From a virus, in the IMG/VR virus record IMGVR_UViG_3300025872_000050, positions 14,348 through 78,347 of that record: DNA of 64,000 nt. One strand, written 5' to 3'. The notes beneath the pieces are model-generated. The model was not told where the DNA came from. It did no database searches and worked only from the letters and a program-made list of their open reading frames with translations. Shown piece by piece: positions 25,190 to 50,548 of this stretch (its first letter is position 1; each line of letters begins with the position of its first letter). Position numbers and translations under genes: made by a program.

Positions 25190-26891
25190 AGCGCGCAGGG
25201 TGCGCAACGCGATCAGAGTCGGGTTCCCGTACGACCGCGGGGTCATCGACCGCGTGAAGCAGATCCCCGGCTACGAGTGGGACAAGGGGAAGCGCGAGTG
25301 GAAGTTCCCGCTCGACACGCTCACGGTGGACTACCTCGTGCGCATGTTCGACGACCTGACGATCGACCCGAGCCTGTCCGACTGGTACGACGCGGCCAAG
25401 AAGCGCGCCGACCGCATCAAGCTGGCGCGATCAGGCGAGCTCGACCAGCTGCTGTACGAGCACTCACTCAAGCTCTACCCCTACCAGAAGACGATGGTCG
25501 CCTTCATGACCGAGGCCAAGCGCTGCCTCAACAGCGACCAGATGGGCTTGGGCAAGACGATCGAGACGATCGCGTCCATCCGTGAGCTCGATCTGAGAGG
25601 CGAGCTCGAGAATCGGCGCTTCCTGATCGTCTGCCCCAACTCGATGCGGTACACGTGGATGCGGGAGATCGCGACGTGGTACCCCGAGACGCTGCCTGTC
25701 GCGGTCGTCAACAGCGGGCGTGAGCTCGAGGCCGACGAGGGCTGGTTCATCATCAACTGGGAGAAGCTCTGGAGGCGCGAGGCTGCGCTCCTGGCCAAGC
25801 CGTTCGGTGCCATCGTCGGTGACGAGTCGCATCGCATGAAGAACAAGGACGCGAAGCAGTCGAAGGCGATGCACAAGCTCGACTCCAAGGTGAAGTTCCT
25901 GCTGTCGGGCACGCCGATCAAGAACCACGTGCCCGAGCTCTGGTCACAGCTGCACTGGCTCGACCGCGCGCGGTTCTCGAGCTACTGGAAGTTCATGGAC
26001 CAGTACGTCATGCTCCAGGAAGACTTCTGGGGCCACAAGCAGATCGTCGGCACCAAGAACGAGGACGAGCTGCGCGAGGTCCTGACCACGATCCAGATGG
26101 GCCGCACGATCGACGAGGCTTGGCACGATCGGCCGACGCTCGTCGGTCCGAAGCTGCTGCGCGTCACGCTCGGAGACCGGCAGCGCAAGGCGTACACGCA
26201 GATGCAGGAGGAGCTCGTCGCCGAGATCGAGCGCACCGACAGCGACGTGGGCGACATCATCAAGGCGCCCAACTGGATGACGCAGTTCCTGAGGCTCAAG
26301 CAGATCGCGGGCTCGCTGGGCATCTTCAGCGACGAGCACAAGGACTCCGCCAAGCTGGACCTCCTGTTCGAGAAGATGGAGGAGGCCGAGGGCGAGAAGA
26401 TCGTCGTCATGTCTCAGTTCCGCACGCTCACGATGGAGCTGCATGAGCGCCTCAAGCAGGCGGGCGAGCCGCACATCGTCCTGACTGGGCAAGGCGTCGG
26501 ATCGTGGGACCCCTCTGACGGCTACAAGAAGTTCGCCACCAGAGACGATGCCTGCGTCGCGTTCAACACCGACCCCAAGTGGCGGCTCTTCATCGCGACC
26601 ACGCAGACTGGAGGCGAGGGGCTCACGCTCGTGGGAGCGCGCTACTTCTTCTTCCTCGACCTGCTCTGGACTCCGGCCGACAACGATCAGGCCTGGGCCC
26701 GCGTCTACCGCCGCGGCCAGACGCGCACCACGTTCGTCTACGCGATCGTCGCCGACGACACCATCGACTTCAGCGGCATCTTGCCAAAGCTGAAGACCAA
26801 GAGGGACATCATCGAGGCGGTGTTGGGTAAGCGAGACGAGTCGGAGGTGCCGCTCAGCACGAACGACGCGAACGAGCCCGACGAGGCATAA
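25179..26891 (+). CDS. SNF2-family helicase/annealase with an N-terminal HARP-like domain
   Basis: DQMGLGKT, DESH, LSGTP, GGEGLTL and QAWARVYRRGQ motifs. Confidence 0.92.
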   Translation: MPVEARRVRNAIRVGFPYDRGVIDRVKQIPGYEWDKGKREWKFPLDTLTVDYLVRMFDDLTIDPSLSDWYDAAKKRADRIKLARSGELDQLLYEHSLKLYPYQKTMVAFMTEAKRCLNSDQMGLGKTIETIASIRELDLRGELENRRFLIVCPNSMRYTWMREIATWYPETLPVAVVNSGRELEADEGWFIINWEKLWRREAALLAKPFGAIVGDESHRMKNKDAKQSKAMHKLDSKVKFLLSGTPIKNHVPELWSQLHWLDRARFSSYWKFMDQYVMLQEDFWGHKQIVGTKNEDELREVLTTIQMGRTIDEAWHDRPTLVGPKLLRVTLGDRQRKAYTQMQEELVAEIERTDSDVGDIIKAPNWMTQFLRLKQIAGSLGIFSDEHKDSAKLDLLFEKMEEAEGEKIVVMSQFRTLTMELHERLKQAGEPHIVLTGQGVGSWDPSDGYKKFATRDDACVAFNTDPKWRLFIATTQTGGEGLTLVGARYFFFLDLLWTPADNDQAWARVYRRGQTRTTFVYAIVADDTIDFSGILPKLKTKRDIIEAVLGKRDESEVPLSTNDANEPDEA

Positions 26892-26913: not shown

Positions 26914-26939
26914 ACCATTATCTCGAAAGCGAGGTGATC

Positions 26940-27365
26940 ATGCAGACGTTCCTCCCGTACGACGACTTCGTGCAGACGTCGCGCTGTCTCGACCGCCAGC
27001 GTCTCGGCAAGCAGCGAGTCGAGGTTCTTCAGCTGCTGAAGGCCTTCGACACAGGTAAGGGCTGGGTCAACCACCCAGCCGCGAAGATGTGGCGCGGGTA
27101 CGAGGGCAAGCTGATCGACTACGGCCACGAGATCTGCCAGGAGTGGAAAGAGCGCGGCTACAAGGACACGTGCGACGAGAAGATCTGTGCCTACGAGCTC
27201 GTGTTCGACGTCGATCGCCTCATGGACCCGATGCCGCCGTGGATGGGCGATCCCGCGTTCCACCTGAGCCACAAGAGCAACCTGCTGCGCAAGATGCCCG
27301 ACCACTACCGTCAGTTCTGGCCGGACGTGCCCGACGATCTGCCCTACGTGTGGCCTGTGAACTAA
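26940..27365 (+). CDS. Pyrimidine-dimer DNA glycosylase (endonuclease V / MSMEG_6728-like)
   Basis: MQTFLPY...LDRQRLGKQRVE...HPAAKMWRGY...SHKSNLLRK. Confidence 0.88.
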   Translation: MQTFLPYDDFVQTSRCLDRQRLGKQRVEVLQLLKAFDTGKGWVNHPAAKMWRGYEGKLIDYGHEICQEWKERGYKDTCDEKICAYELVFDVDRLMDPMPPWMGDPAFHLSHKSNLLRKMPDHYRQFWPDVPDDLPYVWPVN

Positions 27366-29046: not shown

Positions 29047-31995
29047 GTGTCTATCAATGAACTACTGAGATCGCTGCTGGGAGACCGGATCCCTCCGGGC
29101 TCGCACGGCGATGTCTCGATCAAGTGCTTCCATCACGAGGATGAGCATAACTCGTGCTCGCTCAACCTCGACACGGGGTTGTGGGTCTGCCATTCGTCTG
29201 GGCAGGGCGGGAACCTGCTCACGGCCGTGAAGCACATCAAGGGATGCTCGTCAGCTGAGGCTAAGAAGTTCATCGCTGAAGCTGGGATCGACATGGGGAA
29301 GGCTCAGCCGAAGACCAAGGCGGACGAGCCCGACAAGATCATCGACGAGTCGATCTCGAAGGTCTATCAGAAGAACCTCGCCCACAATCCCGAGGCGCGC
29401 TCGACTGCGATCACCGACTTTGGCTGGTCGGACGAGGCGATGCGCGAGTTCGAGATCGGCTGGGACGAGAAGACCCAGCGCTACGTCTACCCCATCCGCA
29501 ACGAGATGGGGCAGCTCGTCAACTTCAGGCTGTACGACCCGAAGGCGTCCGGCGAGAACAAGGTCATCTCCTGGAAGAGAGGCCACGGCCAAGTTAGGCT
29601 GTGGCCTTTCACGTCTCTGGACGCGGACACGCTCGTGCTCTGCGAGGGCGAGAAGGACTGCGTCATCATGAACCAGGTCCTTCGCGACAACCGCGTCGAG
29701 GGCTGGGCAGCGATCACCGGCACGGGTGGAGCAGGCACGTGGAAGTCCGCCTGGAACGAGCGCTTCGCTGAGAAGGACGTCATCATCATCTACGACCGCG
29801 ATCCCGCTGGGATCGAGGCTGCGCAGAAGGTGGCGACTGAGCTGATCGACCACGCGACGCGCGTCAAGGTGATCACGCTCGACATCATCCAACCCAAGAA
29901 CGCAGACGTCACCGACTACTTCGTCGTCGGAGGCAAGGGGTGGGACGACCTCAAGCGGCTGATCGACGAGACTGACTACTTCACGCCGCAGACCAAGGTG
30001 CACAAGCCGGTCGGGGTCAAGGACGAGACGCTCTACAAGCCGCACCTCGCAGAGGCGTCAGAGGACCGTTACCTCTACAAGAGGCTCGAGCTCAAGGTCA
30101 TGGTGGCCGGCAAGGACCTCGCGCCGTATGCGGTGCCGAGGACGATGACCTTCGACTGCTACATGGACCAAGGCAACATGTGCAACGGCTGCTCGAACGC
30201 CAACAACAACGGGCTGCAGGTCGTCGACATCCACGACGACGACCCCGACATCATCAAGCTCGTCAAGGTGCCTGAGGACGTGCAGCAGAACGTCATCCGA
30301 CGCAAGCGAGGCATCAACACGCGCTGTCGAGCGGTCGAGGTGACGTCCGACGACTACCACAACGTGGAAGAGGTCACGCTGATCCCGGAGCTCGACTTCA
30401 GCTCGCAGCTCGAACGTGAGCACGTGAGCCGCACGGCGTACGTCATGGAGCACGGGATCATGGCCAACAAGAGCTACGTCATGCGCGGCACGTCTGTGCC
30501 CCATCCCAAGAGCCAGCACGTTGTCCACTTCGTCGAGCAGGTCGACCCGGCACAGGACTCGATCGACGGCTTCGAGCTGGACGACGTCAAGATCGACCGG
30601 CTCAAGAAGTTCCAGGTCAACAAGCCCGGCATCGAGGGAGTGCGCGCCAAGTTCGAGGAGATCGCCCACGACCTGACGATCAACGTGACGCGGATCTACG
30701 GCCGCGAGGACCTGATCGTCTCGGCCGATCTCTGCTACCACTCGGTGATCGCCTTCGACTTCATGGACAAGCCTGTCGCGAAGGCCTGGGGCGACATCAT
30801 CATCCTCGGCGATACGAGGACGGGGAAGTCAGAGACGATCGCGGCGCTCGTGAAGCACTACCGCCTCGGCTCCATGAGCGTGGCCGAGAACACGAGCTTT
30901 GCCGGACTGATCGGCGGCCTGCGTCAGGAAGCTGGCGGACGTTGGTCGATCATGTGGGGCTCGATCCCGCTCAACGATCGGCGGCTGCTCGTGATCGACG
31001 AGGCCTCGGGCCTGTCGGTCGACTCGATCGGAGCCATGTCCGGCATCCGCTCGAACGGCATCGCTGAGATGATCAAGATCGCGGGCATCCAGAGGACGAT
31101 GGCCCGCACGCGGCTGATCTGGATCACCAACCCTCGGAACCCGAGAGCCATGAGCGAGTACTCGCACGGGGTCGAGGTGATCAGGGAGGTGATCGGCCGG
31201 CCGGAGGACATCGCTCGCTTCGACTTCGCCATCAGCGCGGCGACGAACGAGGTCTCGATCGACCTCATCAACGCGTTCACACACGAGCACGTGCCACACG
31301 AGTACACGAGCGACATGTGCCGCTTGCTGATCCTCTGGGCCTGGAGTCGCAAGTCGGAGAACATCGTCTTCACCGAGCCCGCGGTCAAGAAGGTGCTCGA
31401 GCTCGCTACCGAACAGAGCTCCCGCTACGCATCGGAGGGCGGCATCCCGCTCGTCGAAGGAGGCAACCACCGCATCAAGCTCGCCAAGCTGGCGGTCGCC
31501 GCAGCGATCAGAGTCTTCAGCACAGAGGACGGCGTCAACGTCATCGTCAAGCCGGAGCACGTCGAGTTCGTGGCGGGGCACCTCGACCAGCTGTACGAAA
31601 AGCGCTCGCTCGACTACTCCGGCTTCAGCCAGGCAGTGCTGGCGAGGTCGCATGTGCCTGACTCCGCGATCCTCGACGCCGAGGAGTGGGTCAAGCAGAA
31701 CCCCGAGTGGGCCGAGCTCTGGCTGCTCTACCCGGCCCTCAGGGTGGACGACTTCAAGAACCAGTTCGATCTCGAGGTGAAGGAGGTCAAGAGCGAGATC
31801 ATCAGGCCGCTGAGCAAGCTGCGCATGATCGAGAAGTCGCGGGAGAGCGCGTTCCGCAAGACTCCGGTCTTCATCGACGTGCTCAAGCGTATGCGCGAGG
31901 TCGGCCACATCTCGTTCGGCCAGGCCAACGGGTCCGCTCCTGCTGCGGCACCTGTCGCAGCGGCTGTGGCGGATGACGACGACATCCCGTTCTAG
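29047..31995 (+). CDS. DNA primase-helicase fusion: CHC2 zinc finger, TOPRIM and MCM-like AAA+ helicase
   Basis: CFHH..C..C; CEGEKD and DRD; GDTRTGKS, LLVIDE, ARTRLIWITNP, IARFD; C-terminal DDDDIPF. Confidence 0.85.
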   Translation: MSINELLRSLLGDRIPPGSHGDVSIKCFHHEDEHNSCSLNLDTGLWVCHSSGQGGNLLTAVKHIKGCSSAEAKKFIAEAGIDMGKAQPKTKADEPDKIIDESISKVYQKNLAHNPEARSTAITDFGWSDEAMREFEIGWDEKTQRYVYPIRNEMGQLVNFRLYDPKASGENKVISWKRGHGQVRLWPFTSLDADTLVLCEGEKDCVIMNQVLRDNRVEGWAAITGTGGAGTWKSAWNERFAEKDVIIIYDRDPAGIEAAQKVATELIDHATRVKVITLDIIQPKNADVTDYFVVGGKGWDDLKRLIDETDYFTPQTKVHKPVGVKDETLYKPHLAEASEDRYLYKRLELKVMVAGKDLAPYAVPRTMTFDCYMDQGNMCNGCSNANNNGLQVVDIHDDDPDIIKLVKVPEDVQQNVIRRKRGINTRCRAVEVTSDDYHNVEEVTLIPELDFSSQLEREHVSRTAYVMEHGIMANKSYVMRGTSVPHPKSQHVVHFVEQVDPAQDSIDGFELDDVKIDRLKKFQVNKPGIEGVRAKFEEIAHDLTINVTRIYGREDLIVSADLCYHSVIAFDFMDKPVAKAWGDIIILGDTRTGKSETIAALVKHYRLGSMSVAENTSFAGLIGGLRQEAGGRWSIMWGSIPLNDRRLLVIDEASGLSVDSIGAMSGIRSNGIAEMIKIAGIQRTMARTRLIWITNPRNPRAMSEYSHGVEVIREVIGRPEDIARFDFAISAATNEVSIDLINAFTHEHVPHEYTSDMCRLLILWAWSRKSENIVFTEPAVKKVLELATEQSSRYASEGGIPLVEGGNHRIKLAKLAVAAAIRVFSTEDGVNVIVKPEHVEFVAGHLDQLYEKRSLDYSGFSQAVLARSHVPDSAILDAEEWVKQNPEWAELWLLYPALRVDDFKNQFDLEVKEVKSEIIRPLSKLRMIEKSRESAFRKTPVFIDVLKRMREVGHISFGQANGSAPAAAPVAAAVADDDDIPF

Positions 31996-32003
31996 GAGGT
32001 GAC

Positions 32004-32441
32004 ATGGAAAGACAGGAGATGAAGGACCTTGAGCTGTTCCAAGCTCCCGCTGAGTTCGATCCCCTCGAGTCTCAGCGCGAGCTCCAGCGCAAGATCTGGG
32101 CCCGCGGTGTCAACGAAGGCAGAGCACCGGTGCCGCATCACGCGACCGCCGTCACGTACGAACAGCTGCTGCAGCGCATCCGCTTCAACCACGAGGCGGA
32201 CGCCGCAGAGAAGATCGAGATGCTCGACTGGCTGCCGTGGAAGTCATGGAAGACGTACGAGGTCTACCTCGACAAGCCGGTGGACGAAGACACGCGGCTC
32301 GAGCTCAAGTTCGAGCTGATCGACCGCTTCCACTTCATGCTCAACGAAGCGCTCGCGCTGGGCATGACGTGGTCGGAGTTCATGGACATCTTCTTCACCA
32401 AGCAGCTCGAGAACCACCGACGACAGGGCGAGGGATATTGA
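32004..32441 (+). CDS. All-alpha dCTP/dUTP pyrophosphatase (T4 gp56-like)
   Basis: PWKSWK...FELIDRFHF...KQLENHRRQGEGY. Confidence 0.8.
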   Translation: MERQEMKDLELFQAPAEFDPLESQRELQRKIWARGVNEGRAPVPHHATAVTYEQLLQRIRFNHEADAAEKIEMLDWLPWKSWKTYEVYLDKPVDEDTRLELKFELIDRFHFMLNEALALGMTWSEFMDIFFTKQLENHRRQGEGY

Positions 32442-32575
32442 TGGACTTCGAAGATCAGCTGGAGGAGAACTTGCGCGAAGCCGTCCGCAAGATGCTCCGC
32501 AATGAGGCGCCGCTGTGGCACGTGCTCTCAGTGGTCGCAGAAGTCGGCCAGGAGGAAGCAGAGACCGATGACTGA
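32441..32575 (+). CDS. Small hypothetical protein
   Basis: TGATG coupling with the upstream gene. Confidence 0.5.
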   Translation: MDFEDQLEENLREAVRKMLRNEAPLWHVLSVVAEVGQEEAETDD

Positions 32576-33659
32576 CGTGAAGGCTCTGAGCATCATGATG
32601 GGCACGGGAGGCATGGCCGTCGGCTTCGAGAACGCCGGCGTCGAGACGGTCGCCTACCTCGAGAACAACCCGAACTACGGAGCTCCGACCAGGCGCAACT
32701 TCCCCGACGCGTGGCACACCACCGACATGGAGGAGTGGGACGCTGTCGTCGAGGAGTACACGGGAGAGATCCCGATCGTCTACGGCAACCCGCCGTGCCA
32801 GGGCTTGACAGGCGCGAACAAGGCGGCGTCTCCCGACCACTGGAAGAACAAGCTCTTCCCGCAGGCCGTCGAGTGGGCGGTGAAGCTCGAGCCCGAGATC
32901 ATCGCCTTCGAGAACATCCCGCGCATGCTCTCGATGGGTCGCGAGCACCTCGCAGCTGCGGACGAGATCGCGAAGCATCACGGCTACCACCTCTCGATCC
33001 ATCGACACGCAGCTGGAGACTTCGGAGTCTCCCAGCGTCGGCCACGAGTGATGTTCGTCTGGAGCAGGCGGCAGTACCTCTGGCCCAGCCACGAGTACCG
33101 CCCGCCGGCGACGGTCAAGGACGCGATCTCAGACCTCTACGAGGTCACGCCCAACGATGACGGCTCGTGGATGAAGCACGAGGTCCCTCCACAGAGCGAG
33201 TACCAGGAGCTAATGCGCCTCACTCGCGACAGGGCGGGCACGGTCAAAGGCTTCGTCAACCACTACGCTATGTGGACAGCGCCGCATCACAGCGACATCC
33301 CTCAAGGCGGAGCATGGATGGAGATGGAGCGCGAGCTCCTCACCGACAAGGAGCGCGAGCGGCTCGACGCGGGCAGGATCTTCAACGCCGCTGAGATCAG
33401 GCGGCTTCGAGAGGACAAGCACGCGTCCACCGTCACGGCCATGCAGAACAAGATGCACCCGCTCGAGCCTCGGCTGATCAGCGTGCGCGAGGCGGCTCGG
33501 CTGATGGGCTTCCCAGACTGGTTCGAGTTCCCCAACTCGTGGGACTACGGGCAGATGTCAGCGGGCGTGTGTCCGCCGGTCACCGAGTGGTTCGCCAAGA
33601 TGTTCTCGCACGTGCTCGCAGGGACGCCGATCCCGGTCCCTGTCGGAAGGCTCTTCTAA
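32568..33659 (+). CDS. DNA (cytosine-5) methyltransferase
   Basis: GNPPCQG (IV), FENI (VI), QRRPRV (VIII), ISVREAARLMGFPD (IX); motif I is atypical (MMGTGG). Confidence 0.88.
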   Translation: MTDVKALSIMMGTGGMAVGFENAGVETVAYLENNPNYGAPTRRNFPDAWHTTDMEEWDAVVEEYTGEIPIVYGNPPCQGLTGANKAASPDHWKNKLFPQAVEWAVKLEPEIIAFENIPRMLSMGREHLAAADEIAKHHGYHLSIHRHAAGDFGVSQRRPRVMFVWSRRQYLWPSHEYRPPATVKDAISDLYEVTPNDDGSWMKHEVPPQSEYQELMRLTRDRAGTVKGFVNHYAMWTAPHHSDIPQGGAWMEMERELLTDKERERLDAGRIFNAAEIRRLREDKHASTVTAMQNKMHPLEPRLISVREAARLMGFPDWFEFPNSWDYGQMSAGVCPPVTEWFAKMFSHVLAGTPIPVPVGRLF

Positions 33660-33695
33660 GATGTATAATCAAAATATCCACAACTTCAAGGAGGC
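33659..33695 (+). promoter_or_regulatory. Putative promoter (TG-TATAAT) upstream of the clamp/glycosyltransferase operon
   Basis: Perfect TATAAT at 33664-69 in an AT-rich gap, followed by AAGGAGG. Confidence 0.55.
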
Positions 33696-33698
33696 TGC

Positions 33699-34793
33699 AT
33701 GTCCACAGTAGCGACCAAGACAGAGGTCTCGGTCGACCGCGACGAGCTGCTCAACGCTCTCCTGTCCGTCGGAGGGTACGCAGCGAAGTCGCATCACGTC
33801 GACCAGTACCGCTGGCTCCGGCTGACCGTCACAGCCGACAGCGCGATGTTCTCGGCCAGCAACGGCGACGTCGCGGCGTCGCGGTACCTCTCGCTTTCGG
33901 GCCCGGAGATGGACATCCTCGTCCCGCGGCGTCTGATCGACGTCACCAAGGCGATGCCGTCCGGCGCGACGCTCAAGCTGACGTTCGGGGATGGCAAGGT
34001 GAGCGTGTATGGAGGCAAGGGCACGACGCGCTTCAAGCTCGGGCTCTCGTCGCAGGAACCGCTCGGGATCGACACGGGCACGAGGCTCGACTGGAGCGAC
34101 GCCATCGTCCTCACCCAGAGGACGCTGGACGCGTTCGCAGTCGCGTCTCAGTTCTGCGGGTACGACCCCTCGCGGCCGATGCTCCAGAACGTCCAGCTCA
34201 AGGACGGGATGATGATGTCGACCGACACGCACCGCATGTTCTGCGCCAAGGTCGACGGCATCGATCTCGACGACCTCGCGATCCCGGGCTCGGTCATCGG
34301 GCAGCTGAACAACTTCGGCGCGGCCCAGCTCATGTTCAACGACTCCACCGTCTACGGGCGCAACAGCGACTTCTTCTTCCGCGCTCGCCGGATCGACGGT
34401 GCGTTCCCGGACCTGTCCACCATGATCCAGAACGTCCTGGACACGGACGGCTCGTTCAACGTGGGCGTCGACGCAGACTCGCTGATCGACGCGCTCAACA
34501 GCGTCGCGGTCATCTCGTCCGGGCCGTCGCAGACCATCTCGATGAAGCTGGGCGAGGGTCAGCTGGCGCTCGACTTGACGAACCAGGACGGCGACGCTCG
34601 CGAGGAGGTCTCAGCCACGGACTCTCGCGACCTGCGGGTCGGCTTCAACCTCGAGCAGCTCCGGAGCGGGCTCAAGCTGTTCTCCGGCAAGAAGCTCACG
34701 ATGACGTTCGTCAACGAGCTGCGACCCGTCGTGCTGTCCAGCCCAGACGCGACGGACGAGACCCGATTCATGATCGCACCGGTGCGGATCTGA
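33699..34793 (+). CDS. dnaN: DNA polymerase III beta sliding clamp
   Basis: 364 aa; SRPMLQNV, STDTHRM, IDGAFPD, VGFN and MIAPVR motifs. Confidence 0.9.
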   Translation: MSTVATKTEVSVDRDELLNALLSVGGYAAKSHHVDQYRWLRLTVTADSAMFSASNGDVAASRYLSLSGPEMDILVPRRLIDVTKAMPSGATLKLTFGDGKVSVYGGKGTTRFKLGLSSQEPLGIDTGTRLDWSDAIVLTQRTLDAFAVASQFCGYDPSRPMLQNVQLKDGMMMSTDTHRMFCAKVDGIDLDDLAIPGSVIGQLNNFGAAQLMFNDSTVYGRNSDFFFRARRIDGAFPDLSTMIQNVLDTDGSFNVGVDADSLIDALNSVAVISSGPSQTISMKLGEGQLALDLTNQDGDAREEVSATDSRDLRVGFNLEQLRSGLKLFSGKKLTMTFVNELRPVVLSSPDATDETRFMIAPVRI

Positions 34794-34987
34794 TGGCTGC
34801 CGATATTCGTTACTACGAGGCGATCGCTCGCAAGCTGGTCGACATCGGCGCGGAGCTCGATCCTGAGCACCAAGCGGCATGGGACGAGATCGACAGAGGC
34901 GAGCAGAACTTCGCCATCGAGGTCATCCGCAAGGCCGTCGACGACAAGATCATCGAGCCAGGCGTCTGGCTCTTTCCCAAGCCGTAG
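34793..34987 (+). CDS. Small hypothetical protein
   Basis: TGATG coupling with the upstream gene. Confidence 0.5.
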   Translation: MAADIRYYEAIARKLVDIGAELDPEHQAAWDEIDRGEQNFAIEVIRKAVDDKIIEPGVWLFPKP

Positions 34988-34996
34988 GAGGCTGCA

Positions 34997-36265
34997 ATGA
35001 AGCTGTTCTGGTACGACCGCGGGCTCTGCAACCAGAGCTCAGCGATCGCGAACCTCCCCGAAGAGGACGAAGTCTTCATGGTCTTCAGCCCGGGGCTCAA
35101 GCACACCGAGCCGAACATGACCGGCAACGAGCTCTGGAAGGTGCCGCTGCTGCACCACCTTGCAGACTCGGGTCACGAGATCACGCGCGGGTCGACTCGC
35201 AGGATCGAGCCGTCGGAGGAGCGGGACTTCGACCTGCGTCGCCTGCGCGACATGTACCCCGAGTACGGAGCCTTCGTCCGCGATCGCGACCCGATGCTGG
35301 ACACGGCGATCTGGGACATCCACAAGGAGCTCGAGCAGGAGTACATCAAGGAGGGCGTCGGCGACCGCATCAACACGGCCGACGTCATCAAGAAGTGGCT
35401 CAAGGAGAAGCCGTTCGGCACCGGGCCGGACGTCGACCTAGCGCTGTTCATCGTCATGAGGAGCAACCCGATCTCTGCTCTCGAGCAGACGTACCAGATC
35501 GCCATGTTCCTCATGCGCGGCATCCCGGTCATGCTCTGGGACCACGATCGGCAGATCGCCGGCACCGCTCGCAGCCTCATGCACGGCGGGCTCGACTGGC
35601 CGCACCCGCTGATCACGGTCATCGCTCCGTACGACGTCGACAACAACTGGGGAGTCCCGGAGCTGATCGACTTCCCCTACACGGAGCACCTCGAGACCTA
35701 CACGCCGATCGCGGAGCGCGAGTACCCGGGGCAGGTCTACTGCGGCAACGACTACGCTCGCGACGCGGAGTTCGCCGCGTACGTCTTCCCGCAGGCCGCC
35801 GCCGGCACGCCCACGTGGATCTGGGGCAAGTTCGACGGCCCTGACGGGCTCGACAAGCAGACCAAGTGGCCGATGGTCAACTGGATGGGGCGCGTGCCGG
35901 CGAACAAGGTCCCGCGCAAGCTGGCACAGGGCCTCTTCACCGTCAACATCGTCAAGAACACGTACCCCAAGATCGGCCTCATCACGCAGCGCACGTTCGA
36001 CTCCGTCTGCTACGGCACGCTGCAGATGGCGGACGGCAAGATCCACCGCATCGGGAAGTACGTCCCCGAGGACTACATCGTCCGCTCCGAGCGCGAGGCC
36101 GTCGAGCTCGGACAGAAGATCCTCACGTACAGCGACGAGGAGTACCGCGACGAGCTCCAGAAGCAGCGGGCGCTCGTGAAGACCAACACGCTGGAGGGCT
36201 ACTTCTTCCCGCGGTTCGACGAGCTCATGGAGCTCGCCCTCTCAAAGGCTGGTGTGGCTGCGTGA
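34997..36265 (+). CDS. GT-B glycosyltransferase, DNA beta-glucosyltransferase-like
   Basis: YCGNDY.R...IWGK...GRVP...VNIVK..Y....ITQRTFD..; position in the DNA metabolism operon. Confidence 0.6.
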   Translation: MKLFWYDRGLCNQSSAIANLPEEDEVFMVFSPGLKHTEPNMTGNELWKVPLLHHLADSGHEITRGSTRRIEPSEERDFDLRRLRDMYPEYGAFVRDRDPMLDTAIWDIHKELEQEYIKEGVGDRINTADVIKKWLKEKPFGTGPDVDLALFIVMRSNPISALEQTYQIAMFLMRGIPVMLWDHDRQIAGTARSLMHGGLDWPHPLITVIAPYDVDNNWGVPELIDFPYTEHLETYTPIAEREYPGQVYCGNDYARDAEFAAYVFPQAAAGTPTWIWGKFDGPDGLDKQTKWPMVNWMGRVPANKVPRKLAQGLFTVNIVKNTYPKIGLITQRTFDSVCYGTLQMADGKIHRIGKYVPEDYIVRSEREAVELGQKILTYSDEEYRDELQKQRALVKTNTLEGYFFPRFDELMELALSKAGVAA

Positions 36266-37023
36266 CCGCGCGAGAGCACCTCAGCCAGCTCCCGATGTAC
36301 TACATCAACCTCGACAAGGACGTCTCGCGCCACACGGGGTTCCTCACGGAGATGGCTCCGCTCTTCGGGTCCGCGACCAGGATCGCGGGCATCGAGGGGT
36401 GGACGCTCCCGGACGAAGAGGTCGTCGCGTTTCGCCTGCGGCACGCCGAACACGCCGGCAAGCCTGCGCCGACCAAGTGGACGGAGCGGGTTTGGCGCAT
36501 CGCGCGTGGGATGCTCGGGTGCTCGCGCTCGTTCCAGCTCGCGCTGCGGACGGGGCTCGAAGCGGGTCACGAGCGGTTCGTCCTGTGCGAGGACGACGCG
36601 AGGCCCCGCCTCGAGCTGCTGGACATCGTCGAGCCTCCTGGCGGCGACATGGTCGGGTGGGGAGGCATGCAGTTCGCCGCAGCCGCGACGGACGACGCGC
36701 TCTTCCTCTCCGGAAAGCCGCACCGCTGGAAGCCGCTCGACAAGCCGCAGCACGGGTCGCACGGGTTCTTCTGCATGCACTGCTACGAGGTCACGCCTCG
36801 GTTCGCGGAGGCCCTGCTCGAAGTCATGGCGCTCGAGGACCGCTATAACGATTGGTGCTGGAACGTGCTGTGGGGGCCGCGGTTCACCGCATGGCAGAGC
36901 CTGCCGCAGGTCTTCTGCATCAGGTCTGGGAACCTGAGCACCATCCGTGGGACGGTCTCCGCGAACGGCAGGACGGACAGCTTCAACCCAGTACCCCAAC
37001 TCACCCAGGAGCCGCTGCTATGA
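36262..37023 (+). CDS. Glycosyltransferase family 25-like
   Basis: YYINLD...R...GCSRS...VLCEDDA. Confidence 0.75.
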   Translation: MTAREHLSQLPMYYINLDKDVSRHTGFLTEMAPLFGSATRIAGIEGWTLPDEEVVAFRLRHAEHAGKPAPTKWTERVWRIARGMLGCSRSFQLALRTGLEAGHERFVLCEDDARPRLELLDIVEPPGGDMVGWGGMQFAAAATDDALFLSGKPHRWKPLDKPQHGSHGFFCMHCYEVTPRFAEALLEVMALEDRYNDWCWNVLWGPRFTAWQSLPQVFCIRSGNLSTIRGTVSANGRTDSFNPVPQLTQEPLL

Positions 37024-37742
37024 AGGTCTCATGCGTCATGCCCGTCTGCGGGAGGCTCGACTTCACCCGCAAGGCTGTGGACTACTTCTTCCGACAGACG
37101 GAGGCTGACTCCGAGCTCATCATCGTCGACGACTGGGACGAGCCGACACGCACCGTCTACGAAGAGGCGCTCGACATCCCGACGTGGAAGCCACGCATCC
37201 GCTACGTGCGAGGGTACGCAGCAGAGATGCCTGCTGGGCCTAAGCGCAACATGGGCGCCGCAGCTGCGATCGGCGAGTACATCCTCCACTGGGATGACGA
37301 TGACTGGTACGCTCCCACGAGGATCGAGCACCAGATCTCCCGTCTCGAGGGCAACGACGACGTGGACATCACGTGGATGCCCAACGCCGTCTCGTTCTAC
37401 ATCAACACAGGATCGTCATGGGTGCCTCGTCCCGACTCGCACTGGCTCACGAACGGGACCGTGGTCCTCGGAGGCTCGCTCGCGTACAAGCGGCACGTGT
37501 GGGACGCGGGTGTGCGCTACGAGAACCGCACGTACGCCGACGAAGAGAACTTCTGCCGCGACGCACGAAAGATGGGGTTCAAGCAGGAGCGCGACGTCAC
37601 GCCTGAGCAGTGGATGATCATCAGGCACGACGGCCACGGGCGCAAGCATCGGCCGGGCCCATCAATGATGGCCGGCAAGCCGACCTACGTCCCCGAGAGC
37701 GATCTCGAGTTCTACCGCATGATGGGAGGGGCGCTGCTGTGA
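37020..37742 (+). CDS. Glycosyltransferase family 2
   Basis: VSCVMP, ELIIVDD, KRN, HWDDDDWY. Confidence 0.85.
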   Translation: MKVSCVMPVCGRLDFTRKAVDYFFRQTEADSELIIVDDWDEPTRTVYEEALDIPTWKPRIRYVRGYAAEMPAGPKRNMGAAAAIGEYILHWDDDDWYAPTRIEHQISRLEGNDDVDITWMPNAVSFYINTGSSWVPRPDSHWLTNGTVVLGGSLAYKRHVWDAGVRYENRTYADEENFCRDARKMGFKQERDVTPEQWMIIRHDGHGRKHRPGPSMMAGKPTYVPESDLEFYRMMGGALL

Positions 37743-38386
37743 TCAGCGTCGTCACGCCCAGCCTCAACCAGGGCCGCTTCATCCGCAAGAACATCGAGTC
37801 GGTGCTTGACCAGGACGTGGTAGCTGAGCACATCGTCATCGACGGCGGCAGCACAGACGAGACGCTGAGCATCCTGGCCGAGTACCCTCATCTGAAGTGG
37901 GTGAGCGAGCCGGACAGCGGGCAGTCTGAGGCGATCAACAAAGGGCTGCGCATGGCGACGGGCGACATCTTGGTCTGGCTCAACAGCGACGACATGCACA
38001 TGCCGCAGACGTACGGGCTCGTGCAGGTCTTGCTCGAGGAGAGCGACGTGATCGCAGGCAACTGCTACGCGATCCAGATGGACGGGTCGTGGAAGCTACA
38101 TCGTGCGAGGTTCACGTGCCTCGCAGACCTCATGAGCAAGCACTACCACGTACATCAGCCCGCCGTCTTCCTGAAGCGCAAGGTGTACGAAGAGGTTGGA
38201 GACTTGAGGGAGGACCTGCACCTGATCATGGACTTCGACTACTGGGTCAGAGTCATCTTGGCTGGGTTCCGAGTGACTACGGTCAAACACGCTCTGGCCG
38301 CGGTGCACAGGCATCCGGACGCCAAGACGGGCGTCAGCTACGCGCAGTACAACCGTGAACGTATGAGTTACATCAAGGAGCTGTGA
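37739..38386 (+). CDS. Glycosyltransferase family 2 (WfgS/WcaE-like)
   Basis: ISVVTPSLNQ, IDGGSTDET, GQSEAINKG, WLNSDD. Confidence 0.9.
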   Translation: MISVVTPSLNQGRFIRKNIESVLDQDVVAEHIVIDGGSTDETLSILAEYPHLKWVSEPDSGQSEAINKGLRMATGDILVWLNSDDMHMPQTYGLVQVLLEESDVIAGNCYAIQMDGSWKLHRARFTCLADLMSKHYHVHQPAVFLKRKVYEEVGDLREDLHLIMDFDYWVRVILAGFRVTTVKHALAAVHRHPDAKTGVSYAQYNRERMSYIKEL

Positions 38387-38751
38387 TGCCTGAAGACATC
38401 GGTCCCGGCCACAAGTTCGACGACGGAAAGCCGAAGGTCGACCTCGTCGACCCGGAGTTCATCTACGACGTCGCGATCGCAGCGGAGTACGGCGCCAAGA
38501 AGTACGCGCCGTGGAACTGGCTCGGCGGCTTCGCGTACATGCGCTGCTTCGCATCGATCATGAGGCACCTGCTGGAGTGGGCTCGAGGGCGCGACGTGGA
38601 CGAGGAGTCCGGGCTGCCCCACCTCAGTATGGCGGCCGCTCAGCTGATGTTTCTCATGCACCAAGTCCGCAGGCCCGAGCAGTACGGGCACCTGGACGAC
38701 CGCCCCAAGTTCGAAGACGTCGAGATCAAGAAGGAGGATGATCGCTGGTGA
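38386..38751 (+). CDS. dATP/dGTP diphosphohydrolase-domain protein (DUF5664-like)
   Basis: KFDDGKP...YGAKKY..WNW..G...RHL..W..G...DEESGLPHL. Confidence 0.85.
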   Translation: MPEDIGPGHKFDDGKPKVDLVDPEFIYDVAIAAEYGAKKYAPWNWLGGFAYMRCFASIMRHLLEWARGRDVDEESGLPHLSMAAAQLMFLMHQVRRPEQYGHLDDRPKFEDVEIKKEDDRW

Positions 38752-39527
38752 GCCTACGAGTGATAGATCGGCTCTCGATGCGCTACCCGGATCTGCTGAA
38801 GGAGGTGCTCGCGAAAGGCGCTGATGTCGAGAGTCGCGTGGGCATGACGCGCGAGCTGATCGCGTACAACCTCGTGCTGACGGAGCCCAAGCACTGCGTC
38901 GTCGATCGCGACGGCTTCAGCCGCGAGTTCATGGACGCTGAGATCGCGATGCTGCTCGCCGGCGTGTACGACAGCGGCATCATCCAGAGCATCTCGCGGA
39001 AGGCGGGAACGCTCATGGCGCCGGCGACGGCTTACGGGCCCCGCATCAAGACGCAGATCTTCTCAGCGAGGAACGAGCTCAGGAACGATCGCTCAAGCCG
39101 ACGAGCCGTCGTCTACGTCGGCCACGCAGACGACCTCTACAACGCCACGACGTCGCCGCTGTGGAAGGGCGAGATGCCCTGCACGATGACGTGGCAGTTC
39201 CTCGTACGAGACGCGAAGCTGCACATGATCGTCAACATGCGGTCGTGGGACCTCGTCTGGGGTCTGTGCTACGACGTGCCGTCGTTCGTCTCAGTCCAGA
39301 AGGCGCTGTCCAGGGACCTCAAGATCCCGATGGGCCACTACTACCACAACGCGGGATCGGCGCACGTGTACGAGCACCATTTCGGCGTCGAAGCTCGGCC
39401 CAACCTGCACGGAAAGCTCAAGCTAGACATCGTCGCGAACGAGCTCGAGCAGACGCGCATGCTCGCGATCGGGCGAGTGTCGAAGCTGCGCGGCACGGCT
39501 CCCCTTCACCGCGAGGACCTTCCGTGA
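38748..39527 (+). CDS. Thymidylate synthase homolog, likely a dCMP hydroxymethylase (or other dCMP C5-modifying enzyme)
   Basis: AYGPRI, SRRAV, MPC, MRSWDLVWGLCYD (Asp at the Asn177/Asp179 specificity position), GSAHVY. Confidence 0.8.
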   Translation: MSLRVIDRLSMRYPDLLKEVLAKGADVESRVGMTRELIAYNLVLTEPKHCVVDRDGFSREFMDAEIAMLLAGVYDSGIIQSISRKAGTLMAPATAYGPRIKTQIFSARNELRNDRSSRRAVVYVGHADDLYNATTSPLWKGEMPCTMTWQFLVRDAKLHMIVNMRSWDLVWGLCYDVPSFVSVQKALSRDLKIPMGHYYHNAGSAHVYEHHFGVEARPNLHGKLKLDIVANELEQTRMLAIGRVSKLRGTAPLHREDLP

Positions 39528-39931
39528 AGAAGCGTCAGCTCCGCTACCTCATGGACATCGCAGACCTCACCGCGGCGATGTCGCGCTGCAAGCGGCTTCA
39601 GGTCGGAGCTGTCCTCGCCAGCGTGGACCTCACCCAGTTCGTCGTCGGCTACAACGGCGGCGTCAAGGGCGGGCCCAACACGTGCCTGCGCGAGGACGAG
39701 GGCGCGTGCGGCTGCGTCCACGCGGAAATGAACGCGATCGCCAAGGCGACCGCCGGCGTGCATCGCGTCGCGATCCTCACGGTATCCCCGTGCGAGCTGT
39801 GCGCGACGCTACTGGCCAACGCAGGCGTGACGCACGTCTACTACCACTACCTCTACCGTGAGAGCCTCAGAGGGATCGAGGCGCTCGATCGGGGCGGAGT
39901 TGTGCGCTTCACGTGGGAGGAAGTGCTGTGA
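39524..39931 (+). CDS. dCMP deaminase
   Basis: SRCKRLQVGA, GYNG, HAEMNA, SPCELC. Confidence 0.9.
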   Translation: MKKRQLRYLMDIADLTAAMSRCKRLQVGAVLASVDLTQFVVGYNGGVKGGPNTCLREDEGACGCVHAEMNAIAKATAGVHRVAILTVSPCELCATLLANAGVTHVYYHYLYRESLRGIEALDRGGVVRFTWEEVL

Positions 39932-41844
39932 ACCTGCTCGAGCAGTTCGACGACTTCGACGCGCGAGAGCTCGTCTCGGCTGATACAGTGCTGCAGCTGT
40001 GGCGCGAAGACCGTCCCGCAGTCGTGGCGCTCGACACGGAGTCTCCCACATGGCGCTGGTACGAGTCCGACGCCGACCCGTTCGCGGTGACGCTCTCGTG
40101 GGGCCGCGACCGCACGTTCTACGTCGTGACCCGCAACGAGGACGCCGTCTACCAGAAGACGCACTACGTGGACGACCCGGGGAACCATCGCATCCGCGAG
40201 GACGCGGCGAAGATGGTCTTCGAGATCTTCAACGACACGCCGACGATCGTCATGCACAACGCGAAGTACGACCTCCACGTCTTCAAGCGCATGTTCGACG
40301 CTCACGGGCTCGAGCTGATGGAGCGCGAGGTGCACGACACGATGATCATGAGCCCGATCCTCAACGAAAAGAGGCACCACGGCCTCAAGGAGCTCTCTAC
40401 GGCGCTCGGGATCAGCTACGACACCGACGGGACTCCCGCCGACTTCTACCGCTCGCAGATCGATGGGTGGCGCGAGTCGCAGGCCAAGGTCGAGGGGCGG
40501 GAGATCCGCTACGACGAGGTCCCGCTTCGGCTCATGGTGCCGTACGCAGTGGGCGACGCCTACCTCACGCTCGCGCTCTTCGCCGAGTTCATGCACGAGA
40601 TGGAGAAGACGTCCGCTCCTCAGTCCAAGCCTTTCGCGGAGCGAGACCTGCCTCGGATCTACGCGACCGAGCTCGATGTCATGTGGGTGCTCTTCTGGGC
40701 AGAGGAGAGAGGCATGCGCATCGACCTCGACTTCGTCAACACGCGCATCGCTGAGCTGACGCCGACCATCGAAGAGATCAGGGTGGAGATGACTCAGCAG
40801 CTCGGCTGGGACATGAACCCCGGCTCGACGGACGATGTCGCGAAGGCGCTGGAGCAGTTCGGCATCAAGGGCGACTGGGTCAACCCGCGCACGGGCAGGG
40901 TCAAGCTTCCAGAGTGGGTTCTCGAGGGCCTCGACCACCCGTTCGCCAAGCGCGTCCTGGAGTACCGTTCCGCGACCAAGATGCTCGGGTCGTACTACGA
41001 GCACCTTGCTCAGCAACATCGCATGATCGGCGAGCTCGCGATCATCAGCTGCAATTTCAAGCAGATGGGCGCACGCACTGGGCGCATGAGCATCACAGAG
41101 CCCGCGCTCCAGACGATCCCGCGCGAGAAGGGCGGGGTGAGAGGGGCGTTCATCGCGCGACCCGGGCATCAGCTCATCTTCGCCGACTTCAAGGCGCAGG
41201 AGCTTCGCGTGCTCGGGCACTACATGGCCAAGGTCGGAGACGACTCCATGCTCCGCATCTTCGAGCAGGACGACCCAGACCCGCATCGCGAGACCGCCGC
41301 AGCGATGTACCGCGTCCGCCCCGAAGAGGTCACCAAGCAGATGCGGGCCGACGGCAAGACGATGAACTTCGCCATCGTCTACGGAGCGGGCCAGCAGAAG
41401 ATCGCGGACATGCTCGGCGTCGAGCTCGACCAAGGCAAGAAGATGCTCTACGCGTTCTACGATCGGTTCCCCGGCATCCGCAAGCTGAAGAGCGCCACCG
41501 AACAGGCCATGCGCGAGCGCGGCTACATCGTCACGGTCTTCGGCCGCAGGCATCGTGAAGAAGAAGGGCGGTTCGCGTACAAGGCTGTGAACTCCCTCGT
41601 CCAGGGGACGTCAGCTGACCAGGCGAAGAGCGCGATGGTGCGACTGCATCGCCGGTTCGAGAAGGACGGCATGCGATCGCGCGTTCTGCTGCAGATCCAC
41701 GACGAAGTCGTGGTCGAATGTCCGGAGGAAGAGCTCGATCTGGCTCGAGAGACGGTCAGAGCAGTCATGTGCGACTGGCCAGAGCTCCTCGTACCCATGG
41801 ATGTGGACATCAACCACGCGACGCGCTGGTCGGACGCAAAGTAA
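39928..41844 (+). CDS. polA: DNA polymerase family A with 3'-5' exonuclease
   Basis: DTE, HNAKYD, RTGRMS..PALQTIPR, ADFKAQELR, KTMNFAIVYG, QGTSAD, QIHDE. Confidence 0.95.
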   Translation: MNLLEQFDDFDARELVSADTVLQLWREDRPAVVALDTESPTWRWYESDADPFAVTLSWGRDRTFYVVTRNEDAVYQKTHYVDDPGNHRIREDAAKMVFEIFNDTPTIVMHNAKYDLHVFKRMFDAHGLELMEREVHDTMIMSPILNEKRHHGLKELSTALGISYDTDGTPADFYRSQIDGWRESQAKVEGREIRYDEVPLRLMVPYAVGDAYLTLALFAEFMHEMEKTSAPQSKPFAERDLPRIYATELDVMWVLFWAEERGMRIDLDFVNTRIAELTPTIEEIRVEMTQQLGWDMNPGSTDDVAKALEQFGIKGDWVNPRTGRVKLPEWVLEGLDHPFAKRVLEYRSATKMLGSYYEHLAQQHRMIGELAIISCNFKQMGARTGRMSITEPALQTIPREKGGVRGAFIARPGHQLIFADFKAQELRVLGHYMAKVGDDSMLRIFEQDDPDPHRETAAAMYRVRPEEVTKQMRADGKTMNFAIVYGAGQQKIADMLGVELDQGKKMLYAFYDRFPGIRKLKSATEQAMRERGYIVTVFGRRHREEEGRFAYKAVNSLVQGTSADQAKSAMVRLHRRFEKDGMRSRVLLQIHDEVVVECPEEELDLARETVRAVMCDWPELLVPMDVDINHATRWSDAK

Positions 41845-43585: not shown

Positions 43586-44050
43586 TTGATCATCGGCTTC
43601 ACAGGAACACAACAGGGTCTCAGCTTCGAGCAGCGCGAGACGCTCGCGGACGTGCTGGAAAACTCCGACTTCGACATCGCGATGCACGGCGACTGCATCG
43701 GAGCAGATCGCGACTTCCACGACATCGTCAGGAACCTCGACTTCGACGTCAAGGTCGTGGTCTTCCCGTCGAACATCGAGGGGAAGCGCGCGTTCTGCGA
43801 CGCCGACTCCGTCATGGACTCCGCCGACCCGCTCGTCCGCAACGCAGCGATCGCCCAGCTCTGCGACACGCTGATCGCGTGTCCCAAGGAGTTCAGCGAG
43901 GTCTTGCGATCCGGGACATGGGCCACAGTCCGCTACGCGATGAAGGCCCAGAAGACGATCGTGCTGATCCTCCCGGACGGCGTGCCGATCCTCTGCGTGG
44001 CCGCCGAGCCGATCGCCGCATCGATCGCGCGACAGGCGAGGTTGAACTGA
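43586..44050 (+). CDS. SLOG/DprA-like Rossmann-fold protein
   Basis: IGFTGT, HGDCIGAD, RN, SGTWATVRYA. Confidence 0.7.
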   Translation: MIIGFTGTQQGLSFEQRETLADVLENSDFDIAMHGDCIGADRDFHDIVRNLDFDVKVVVFPSNIEGKRAFCDADSVMDSADPLVRNAAIAQLCDTLIACPKEFSEVLRSGTWATVRYAMKAQKTIVLILPDGVPILCVAAEPIAASIARQARLN

Positions 44051-44505
44051 TGCTGCTTCAGGAGATCCTCCTCGGCGGTCATCCTCACGGAGCGACCGAA
44101 CAGTGGCAGATGCTCGTCGGCTGCATCCTGCTCAACCAGACGTCGCGCGCTCAGGTGGACGGCGTCTACCCCGAGCTGTTCCGGTACTTCCCCGGGCCCT
44201 ACTCGGTCGAAGACCTGACCGACGAGGAGCTCGCCTCGCTGGCCATCATCATCAAGCCGCTCGGGCTCCAGAACGTACGGGCGCTTCGGCTGCGGCAGTT
44301 CTCAGCGCGCTGGATCGACACCATCGACATCCGCGAGCACGACATCGAGACGATGCCGCTGACCGACTGGGAGCTGCGCCAGCTGCCGGGGATCGGAGAC
44401 TACGCCGTCGACAGCTACGCGATCTTCGTCCGTGGCGAGCTCGACCGTCAGCCGCAGGACAAGGAGCTCAAGCGGTACCTGGCCGGTGTACAGAGCTCGC
44501 GTTGA
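44050..44505 (+). CDS. HhH-GPD DNA glycosylase (MBD4-like)
   Basis: WQMLVGCILLNQT, PLGLQNVRA, LPGIGDYAVDSY, PQDKEL. Confidence 0.85.
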   Translation: MLLQEILLGGHPHGATEQWQMLVGCILLNQTSRAQVDGVYPELFRYFPGPYSVEDLTDEELASLAIIIKPLGLQNVRALRLRQFSARWIDTIDIREHDIETMPLTDWELRQLPGIGDYAVDSYAIFVRGELDRQPQDKELKRYLAGVQSSR

Positions 44506-45338: not shown

Positions 45339-45701
45339 ATGGACACCATCGACGTCGATGTCACCTGCCCGTTCTGCCAGAAGCAGAGCACCCTCACCGT
45401 CTCGGCCGAGGGCTACAACAAGTGGGGCACGGGAACGCTGATCCAGGAGGCGTTCCCCGAGCTCGGGCCGTCCGAGCGCGAGGGCCTCATGACCGGGATC
45501 TGCGGCCCGTGCTGGGACAAGATGTGGGCCGAAGACGATGACGAGCCCGAGACGCTCGACCTGACAGACCTGGTCGAGCGCGGCGCCGCCGGTCGCGCCA
45601 AGCGCTTCGTGGAGTCCGGGTTCGACACGCGCGTGTTGACCGAGGGCATGATCGACAGCGGAGCGGCGGACCTCGCACGCGACATCGCGAGGGGCAAGTG
45701 A
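45339..45701 (+). CDS. Zinc-finger phage protein
   Basis: CPFC...IQEAFP...RE.LMTGIC..CWD. Confidence 0.65.
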   Translation: MDTIDVDVTCPFCQKQSTLTVSAEGYNKWGTGTLIQEAFPELGPSEREGLMTGICGPCWDKMWAEDDDEPETLDLTDLVERGAAGRAKRFVESGFDTRVLTEGMIDSGAADLARDIARGK

Positions 45702-50544: not shown

Positions 50545-50548
50545 AAAC

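Follow-up and report, generated by a model that had tools for sequence, protein, structure and literature searches.

We analyzed a window of 64,000 nucleotides of viral DNA, bases 14348 to 78347 of IMG/VR record IMGVR_UViG_3300025872_000050 (78,347 bp, rated 87% complete), which carries a cluster of nucleotide-metabolism and glycosyltransferase (GT) genes at positions 32004 to 39931. Judging from its genes, we consider it probable that this cluster is a module for pre-replicative cytosine replacement and DNA glycosylation, located within the replication operon of a phage. Gene coordinates are window positions unless the genome is named, and negative results for the whole genome refer to the 78,347 bp of the record. 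Because many spurious open reading frames (ORFs) stay open at its G+C content of about 65%, frames and starts were fixed by the G+C content at third codon positions (GC3), and the genes were then annotated with Pfam and PHROGs. All credible genes of the phage lie on the + strand. By GC3, the ORFs at 33539 to 34987, 35866 to 37023, 36252 to 36848, and 39161 to 39931 were rejected as wrong frames or over-long starts.

The region begins with a Toprim primase fused to an MCM-like helicase (29047 to 31995). It is followed by a gp56-like all-alpha NTP pyrophosphatase, a candidate dCTPase/dUTPase (32004 to 32441); a C5 cytosine DNA methyltransferase of 385 amino acids (aa) (32502 to 33659, with the true start probably near 32568; PF00145, 2.4e-34); a DnaN-type sliding clamp (33699 to 34793; PF02768, PF00712, and PF02767; PHROG 947, 1e-46), which is replication context and not a pathway enzyme; and a 64-aa ORF of unassigned function (34793 to 34987), which has a coding-like GC3 and gave no family match in Pfam or PHROGs. 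Next come a GT-B glycosyltransferase of 422 aa (34997 to 36265), a GT25-like GT-A glycosyltransferase of 253 aa with an EDD motif (36262 to 37023), and two GT2 glycosyltransferases, here called GT2a (WDDDDW motif; 37020 to 37742; PF00535, 2.3e-15) and GT2b (SDD motif; 37739 to 38386; PF00535, 1.6e-24). A MazZ-like nucleotide diphosphohydrolase (38383 to 38751; PF18909, formerly DUF5664, 2.9e-27; PHROG 801), a thymidylate synthase (TS) homolog (38748 to 39527), and a dCMP deaminase (39524 to 39931; PF00383, 4e-16) complete the cluster, and the gene of the family A DNA polymerase PolA (39928 to 41844; PF00476, 4e-81) follows as context. A fifth candidate GT of 319 aa, corresponding to the C-terminal half of a GT-B enzyme, is encoded upstream at 23255 to 24214 and matched PF13524 weakly (1.4e-4).

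The eight genes from the GT-B gene to polA are linked by seven consecutive 4-nucleotide (nt) start/stop overlaps, the last one between the deaminase and polymerase genes, and the clamp gene overlaps the 64-aa ORF by 1 nt at 34793. We found no promoter-like sites inside the cluster region and no excess of terminator-like sites, and megablast found no counterpart of the region among 50,697 phage records. The original prediction for this DNA had listed most of these genes and had described them as mostly translationally coupled. Both statements hold, since every gene that it listed lies at its coordinates on the + strand and the overlaps are as described; the list was incomplete in that it lacked the C5 methyltransferase, the 64-aa ORF, and the fifth GT candidate.

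We then considered the enzymes acting on nucleotides. The TS homolog contains the motif ...RSWDLVWGLCYD... and was aligned with Escherichia coli ThyA and T4 gp42. In this alignment, Cys146 and Asp169 (in an RSWD motif) are kept, Leu143 is replaced by glutamate, and Asn177 is replaced by aspartate, in line with the earlier claim of an Asp at the dCMP-specificity site (GLCYD). Within the TS superfamily, N177D stands for cytosine specificity, an acidic residue at position 143 accompanies hydroxymethyl products, and D169N is the mark of 5-hydroxy-dCMP synthases (Lee et al., NAR 2026, PMC13326640). Because positions 143, 169, and 177 fit these criteria, the product of the TS homolog is predicted to be 5-hydroxymethyl-dCMP (5hm-dCMP) and neither dTMP nor 5-hydroxy-dCMP. 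The closest solved relatives are the CMP hydroxymethylase MilA and T4 gp42. The homolog is the only TS in the genome, in which we found no match to ThyX.

The C-terminal 71 aa of the gp56-like pyrophosphatase share 42% identity with T4 gp56 (BLASTP, E 6e-15). The protein matched PHROG 173 at 6e-11 and dUTPase_2 weakly, and searches against PDB sequences gave only weak matches to dimeric dUTPases. In the dCMP deaminase, the zinc-binding motifs HAE and PCxxC are intact. Together with the TS homolog, these two proteins bear out the T4-like cytosine pathway that had been proposed. The MazZ-like protein had no match among PDB sequences and its gene is not present in the modules of related phages; as no match to PurZ (PF00709) was found in the genome, the protein does not represent a Z-genome (PurZ/MazZ/DatZ) system.

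The 422-aa GT-B belongs to a rare family. A word search of 5.8 billion sequences returned three relatives, and an identical GT-B is carried by a contig of 85,042 bp. With HMMER, six clusters were found at E<1e-100 among 1.8 billion representatives, surrounded by a halo of PF13524 proteins of about 350 aa. Neither tblastn against phage records nor a related-locus search with the GT-B sequence alone gave a match. The AlphaFold2 (AF2) model, built from a 45-sequence alignment, has a predicted local distance difference test (pLDDT) score of 94.9. It superimposes on T4 beta-glucosyltransferase (BGT; 1qkj) with a Z score of 23.3 and a root mean square deviation of 3.4 over 301 aligned residues (Foldseek, VIA-align) and on T4 alpha-glucosyltransferase (AGT) with a Z score of about 19.8 (VIA-align). 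In a viral model library, many of the top fold matches were proteins annotated as DNA glucosyltransferases or were GTs from phages whose DNA is glycosylated, such as SP-15, RL2RES, and S-TIM5. The modeled fold is thus compatible with a DNA glycosyltransferase, without proving one, and we regard this protein as the best candidate for a glycosyltransferase acting on 5-hydroxymethylcytosine (5hmC) in DNA. The model of the fifth GT candidate reached a pLDDT of only 36, and hhalign found no significant similarity between this protein and the GT-B family profile.

To find relatives, IMG/VR and JGI metagenomes were scanned with the GT-B family alignment. The contigs returned belong to related phages, whose PolA is about 50% identical to the one described here. 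Their gene order is primase-helicase, gp56-like NTPase, C5 methyltransferase, a PF13524 GT of 338 to 370 aa, clamp, a second PF13524 GT, the GT-B ortholog, a variable slot, TS, dCMP deaminase, and PolA. The first of these PF13524 proteins is the homolog of our fifth GT candidate (34 to 35% identity in loci L010/L014, PF13524 at 1.2e-9, and a further homolog in L015), so that in related phages it sits between the C5 methyltransferase and the clamp. GT-B orthologs lie within the TS/deaminase/PolA module in L014, L015, L016, and L017, and all GT-B relatives with usable context share the module of NTPase, C5 methyltransferase, clamp, GT-B, TS, deaminase, and PolA. The gp56-like gene has a homolog in the equivalent position in L010/L014, the deaminase follows TS in L014, L015, and L017, and the TS of the relatives carries the same signature as the TS homolog of the window. 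The stretch fetched for L015 contains no gp56-like gene and ends short of any primase-helicase gene. Two further TS relatives, L012 and L013, end at the TS gene and are uninformative for upstream GTs.

The slot before TS differs in content. It holds a 297-aa protein, a UDP-galactopyranose mutase, and a thymidylate-kinase-like protein in L014, and a UDP-galactopyranose mutase and a kinase in L015 and L017; L015 also has a Polysacc_synt_2 epimerase upstream. In our phage, the slot is occupied by the GT25-like, GT2a, GT2b, and MazZ-like genes instead of mutase and kinase, and the trio of GT25 and two GT2 genes is missing from all three related module types. A core set that is kept, next to a sugar part that varies, is as expected of a locus for DNA-glycan diversification. 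Because its synteny with TS is conserved, a role of the GT-B in DNA modification is supported. As to gene neighborhood, the original prediction is supported in part. At least one GT-B of the DNA type is kept beside the T4-like pathway in related phages, in agreement with the prediction, whereas the trio is absent there and viral relatives of GT2a follow a capsid gene, as described below.

In the pathway that we propose, the gp56-like pyrophosphatase, perhaps with the MazZ-like enzyme, would convert dCTP to dCMP, which the TS homolog would turn into 5hm-dCMP, as its active-site signature suggests. A kinase, either that of the host or one encoded in the remaining 13% of the genome, would raise 5hm-dCMP to the triphosphate, PolA would incorporate the modified nucleotide, and the dUMP formed by the deaminase would feed host dTMP synthesis. 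After DNA synthesis, the 422-aa GT-B and perhaps also the 319-aa GT-B-like protein would add a sugar to 5hmC in DNA, a step to which fold and conserved synteny point. On balance, glycosylated 5hmC is probably present in the DNA of this phage.

Several observations weigh against this interpretation. The main gap in the pathway is the kinase. No kinase of the hm-dNMP or thymidylate type was found in the record by searches with PF02223 and PF13671, by tblastn with the thymidylate-kinase (TMK)-like proteins of the relatives, or by a Walker A scan, although the relatives carry one; the only matches, the zeta-toxin domain of the protein encoded after the portal gene and a helicase, are no kinase candidates. 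A 154-aa protein at 43586 to 44050 has GxTGTxxG...HGDCIGAD motifs and matched PHROG 289 ("GTP-binding domain"); because it has no Walker A motif, it is unlike the missing kinase. Second, the match of the GT-B fold to BGT is tied with matches to BshA (Z 23.4), tetrahydrobiopterin glucosyltransferase, HepE, and PimA. The earlier label "BGT-like" fits the fold, which resembles that of BshA just as much. Third, the syntenic relatives all belong to one phage family, given their PolA identity, so that the shared gene order reflects common descent in part and is not independent evidence throughout. Finally, the presence of a C5 methyltransferase with intact motifs is hard to reconcile with full replacement of cytosine, because C5 would already be substituted.

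This methyltransferase retains the motifs PCQ, ENI, QRRPR, and RE. Its motif X reads SA-G-V-C-P-P-V in place of the usual GN-x-V, a change that is kept in the homologs of L014 and L015 (38 to 40% identity); gp110 of Gordonia phage GodonK is a more distant homolog (24%). The enzyme is thus part of the inherited module set, where its role is unexplained. A search of the genome for a TET/JBP dioxygenase (PF12851) gave no match at E<=1, and because this partner was not found, the known route from methyltransferase (MT) through TET to GT does not apply. The methyltransferase may act on residual cytosines or do something else. It is conceivable, but we think quite unlikely, that the mixed set of GT-B, GT25, and GT2 enzymes builds a tri- to pentasaccharide on 5hmC and that this C5 "methyltransferase," with its changed motif X, contributes to the chemistry of modification or marks cytosines that escape replacement, rather than being an ordinary restriction-modification methylase. 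The phage also has two genes of the DNA glycosylase type, a T4 endoV-like pyrimidine-dimer glycosylase (26934 to 27365; PF03013, 1e-22) and an HhH-GPD protein (44050 to 44505), which are worth noting in a genome with a predicted modified cytosine.

We next examined the GT25/GT2/GT2 trio, which would represent a lineage-specific insertion into the variable sugar slot, serving either a longer DNA glycan or the glycosylation of virion proteins. The GT25-like protein had no Pfam match at E<=0.1, and the PF01755 threshold was not reached. In the ESM Atlas, 25 of its 30 feature hits were GT25 clusters (score 0.97), and its structure gave template modeling (TM) scores of 0.64 to 0.72 to GT25 clusters. 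Its earlier assignment to GT25 is hence upheld by fold, features, and EDD motif, though not by a PF01755 match. Besides an identical sequence, the only homologs are GodonK gp115 (31% identity) and its Phendrix counterpart, and a search with the GT25 alignment returned GodonK alone. In GodonK, gp115 adjoins another annotated GT, a gp56-like MazG, and a C5 methyltransferase, and the TS has an Asp/Asp/Asp signature of the same type as the TS homolog of the window. This context favors a DNA role for the GT25-like protein. None of GodonK gp114, gp116, and gp118 was significantly similar to the GT-B profile (hhalign).

GodonK (MK620899) is a cultured phage and therefore an isolate that allows a direct test of DNA chemistry. 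Its TS, annotated as "thymidylate synthase," bears the dCMP-hydroxymethylase signature, and it also encodes a thymidylate kinase, a dCMP deaminase, the gp56-like MazG, the C5 methyltransferase, and two GTs.

Three other findings argue against action of the trio on DNA. Of the 18 loci that hold the nearest viral relatives of GT2a (27 to 38% identity), 13 have the GT2a-like gene immediately behind the major capsid gene, and none has a TS, deaminase, gp56-like, or PolA gene close by. The 13 capsid-linked genes are part of cassettes of GT and FkbM-methyltransferase genes that end at the head-tail adaptor, and in two further loci a GT2a-like gene is paired with a gene resembling gp108 of mycobacteriophage Che8. 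GT2b is a shortened variant of a cell-wall-type GT2 that is very widespread in bacteria, with thousands of bacterial homologs at 42 to 50% identity named "cell wall biosynthesis," and a related-locus search with GT2b alone returned nothing. Lastly, the family make-up of the trio equals that of Che8 gp108 to gp110, which by Pfam scan are a GT2 with a methyltransferase domain, a GT2, and a GT25, respectively. As a separate observation, ten loci of uncultured phages in IMG/VR (L024 to L026, L029 to L034, and L037) carry several GT genes and an FkbM methyltransferase gene as a cassette flanked by the major capsid and head-tail adaptor genes; such cassettes, placed within the head module, are candidates for a role in capsid glycosylation.

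Because GT-A enzymes have been published to act on 5hmC, starting and extending glycans on DNA that contains it (Pyle et al., bioRxiv 10.1101/2023.12.21.572611), DNA and protein are both chemically reasonable targets, and we consider extension of a DNA glycan and glycosylation of the virion about equally likely for the trio. The first possibility implies that all four tandem GTs act serially on DNA, the GT-B transferring the first sugar to 5hmC and the GT25-like protein, GT2a, and GT2b extending it to a tri- or tetrasaccharide. The four genes indeed lie with 4-nt overlaps in an operon with hmC genes, the trio fills the slot used for sugar-nucleotide genes in the relatives, and the GodonK homolog adjoins hmC-module genes. 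Moreover, the synthesis of a tri-hexose on 5hmC by successive GT-A enzymes has been proven experimentally in other phages (bioRxiv 10.1101/2023.12.21.572611), and trisaccharide 5-hydroxycytosines are known from phages DLP3 and RL38JI (PMC13326640). Against this stand the absence of the trio from the related modules, its Che8-like make-up, the capsid loci of GT2a, and the fact that the phage DNA-glycosylation literature that we compared (PMC13326640; bioRxiv 10.1101/2023.12.21.572611) describes no GT25 enzyme with DNA as its acceptor. We therefore look on serial action of the four enzymes as a possibility and somewhat unlikely, and a chain of three to four sugars on the DNA can likewise be put forward only tentatively. 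The first three of these counterarguments also mean that the single chain made by all four tandem GTs, as originally predicted, was not borne out.

Alternatively, functions could be split, with one or more GT-B enzymes acting on 5hmC in DNA and the trio O-glycosylating proteins of the capsid or tail, for which mycobacteriophages Che8, Corndog, and Myrna offer a precedent. Che8 virions are reported to be glycosylated (Freeman et al. 2023, as cited in PMC12363180 and PMC11256854), and gp110 is cited as essential for glycosylation of the capsid (PMC12363180). In addition to the make-up shared with Che8, three adjacent small GT-A genes in an actinophage-like genome, the position of the GT2a relatives in head modules and the two loci with the gp108-like pair speak for such a split. 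However, the similarity of the trio to the Che8 enzymes is at the level of motifs only (BLASTP, E 0.012 and 0.004), being limited to the region of the EDD motif for the GT25-like protein and gp110, and the GTs of the window have no fused methyltransferase domain. Furthermore, the trio is embedded in, and translationally coupled to, an operon of nucleotide-modification and replication genes rather than head genes, and a Ser/Thr-rich C-terminal tail is not obvious in the major capsid protein (5413 to 6501). A division of labor of this kind is thus also a tentative proposal, and glycosylation of virion proteins by GT25 and GT2 enzymes, which the original prediction had held only as an alternative, has become about as likely as extension of a DNA glycan.

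A third explanation dispenses with DNA glycosylation altogether. The nucleotide genes would then serve pool management or a genome with plain 5hmC or 5-methylcytosine, and all GTs would have virion proteins or glycans of the host envelope as their targets. None of the GTs found here has a diagnostic DNA-binding feature, the fold match of the GT-B is generic, UDP-galactofuranose and GT2 enzymes are characteristic of cell-wall synthesis in actinobacteria, and about 65% of phage GT contigs in a published survey have no base-modification neighbor (bioRxiv 10.1101/2023.12.21.572611). Nevertheless, every related module preserves the tight linkage of the GT-B to TS and deaminase, even as neighboring genes change, and the association of GT-B and ThyS is a published hallmark of pre-replicative hypermodification (bioRxiv 10.1101/2023.12.21.572611). 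In addition, no match to a tyrosine integrase was found in the genome, and lysogenic surface conversion is therefore unlikely. We consider this explanation improbable. A 5-methylcytosine genome, made by the TS homolog acting as a dCMP methyltransferase as in XP12 (or giving another C5 product) together with the C5 methyltransferase, is highly improbable, for although Asp177 tells only of cytosine specificity and the C5 methyltransferase is intact in its motifs, Glu143 is tied to hydroxymethyl and not methyl products (PMC13326640), the retained D169 rules out the signature of a 5-hydroxy-dCMP synthase, and the nearest solved relatives are hydroxymethylases.

Among known systems, the cluster resembles the glucosyl-5hmC pathway of T4, which consists of the gp56 dCTPase, the gp42 dCMP hydroxymethylase, the gp1 dNMP kinase, the Cd deaminase, and alpha- and beta-glucosyltransferases. 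The gp56-like pyrophosphatase, the TS homolog with the same states as gp42 (acidic residue at 143, D169, N177D), the deaminase, and the GT-B fold all have their counterparts there. Unlike T4, the phage is high in G+C and siphovirus-like, has a PolA-based replisome, and encodes up to five GTs, including GT-A types, as well as a conserved C5 cytosine methyltransferase, which T4 lacks; its cluster genes form one translationally coupled operon, a gp1-type kinase was not found, and its GT-B does not resemble BGT or AGT in sequence. The cluster thus works like the T4 pathway but cannot be assigned as a complete member, because the kinase is missing, the GT is no sequence homolog of BGT or AGT, and the modified base is here a prediction from genes.

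Parallels also exist with the glycosylated 5-hydroxycytosine (5hoC) of phages RB69, DLP3, and RL38JI, where the acceptor base is produced as a mononucleotide by an enzyme of the TS superfamily, mono- to trisaccharides are attached by several GT-B enzymes, and the kinase, GT, and TS genes stand next to one another (PMC13326640). In Rhizobium phage RL38JI, for which the modification is chemically proven, the arrangement of kinase, GT, and TS with a phage UDP-galactopyranose mutase (PMC13326640) is mirrored by the relatives L014 and L015. These phages differ in hosts and families, and the TS of the window keeps D169, so that the predicted acceptor is 5hmC, with a methylene-linked sugar, and not ether-linked 5hoC. 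Clusters of C5 methyltransferase, 5mYOX (TET), and GT genes likewise have the methyltransferase near GT-A and GT-B enzymes and build di- and trisaccharides on 5hmC by successive GTs, and ThyS-linked GT clusters have dCMP deaminase, clamp, and polymerase genes in their vicinity (bioRxiv 10.1101/2023.12.21.572611). In contrast to the methyltransferase-TET-GT clusters, the C5 methyltransferase of our phage has no known partner, and its GT-A enzymes are a GT25 and generic GT2s, versus the characterized JGT/TarP-like or GT8-like types. As cytosines with mono- to trisaccharides and thousands of contigs with ThyS and GT are already published (PMC13326640; bioRxiv 10.1101/2023.12.21.572611), the novelty originally claimed was overstated. 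The locus stands out for the rarity of its GT-B family, its unusually high number of GTs, the exchange of the sugar slot among relatives, and the unexplained methyltransferase.

We take the virus to be a lytic, high-GC, tailed phage whose host is probably actinobacterial. Upstream of the replication operon are genes for an ATP-dependent DNA ligase (20147 to 21136), a protein with a NUMOD3 motif, possibly a homing endonuclease (24509 to 25189), and an SNF2 helicase with a HARP motif (25179 to 26891). A GDSL-type esterase adjoins a lysozyme-like (SLT_3) protein (45698 to 46198 and 46460 to 47113). If this esterase were LysB-like, it would suggest a host whose envelope contains mycolic acids. An AAA_5 ATPase of the MoxR/CbbQ type (50279 to 51415) and a 662-aa VWA-domain protein (51417 to 53405) form a conserved pair whose role in phages is unassigned. 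Outside the window, at genome positions 9208 to 11481 and directly after the portal gene, a 757-aa protein combines a PF03496 ADP-ribosyltransferase with a PF06414 zeta-toxin kinase (9e-37); encoded in the MuF slot, it resembles a toxin that is packaged into the head.

Our literature searches found no paper on 5hmC or 5hmC glycosides in actinophages. If the proposed pathway is correct, sugar-coated hydroxymethylcytosine would extend from T-even enterobacterial phages to PolA-based phages of high-GC, probably actinobacterial hosts, and the GT-B would found a new, rare family of DNA glycosyltransferases; the glycan might even be longer than any so far known from a DNA base. The retention of a motif-intact C5 methyltransferase in a genome expected to be devoid of unsubstituted C5 is a puzzle, as is the question of whether GT-A trios of the Che8 type can switch between protein and DNA acceptors. 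DNA of this kind resists cloning, restriction, and some sequencing chemistries, which is of relevance to work on actinophages. Overall, the variable sugar slot, with GT25, GT2, and GT2 here and UDP-galactofuranose synthesis plus a kinase in the relatives, would represent a natural experiment in glycan diversification against restriction, Type IV nucleases, and CRISPR.

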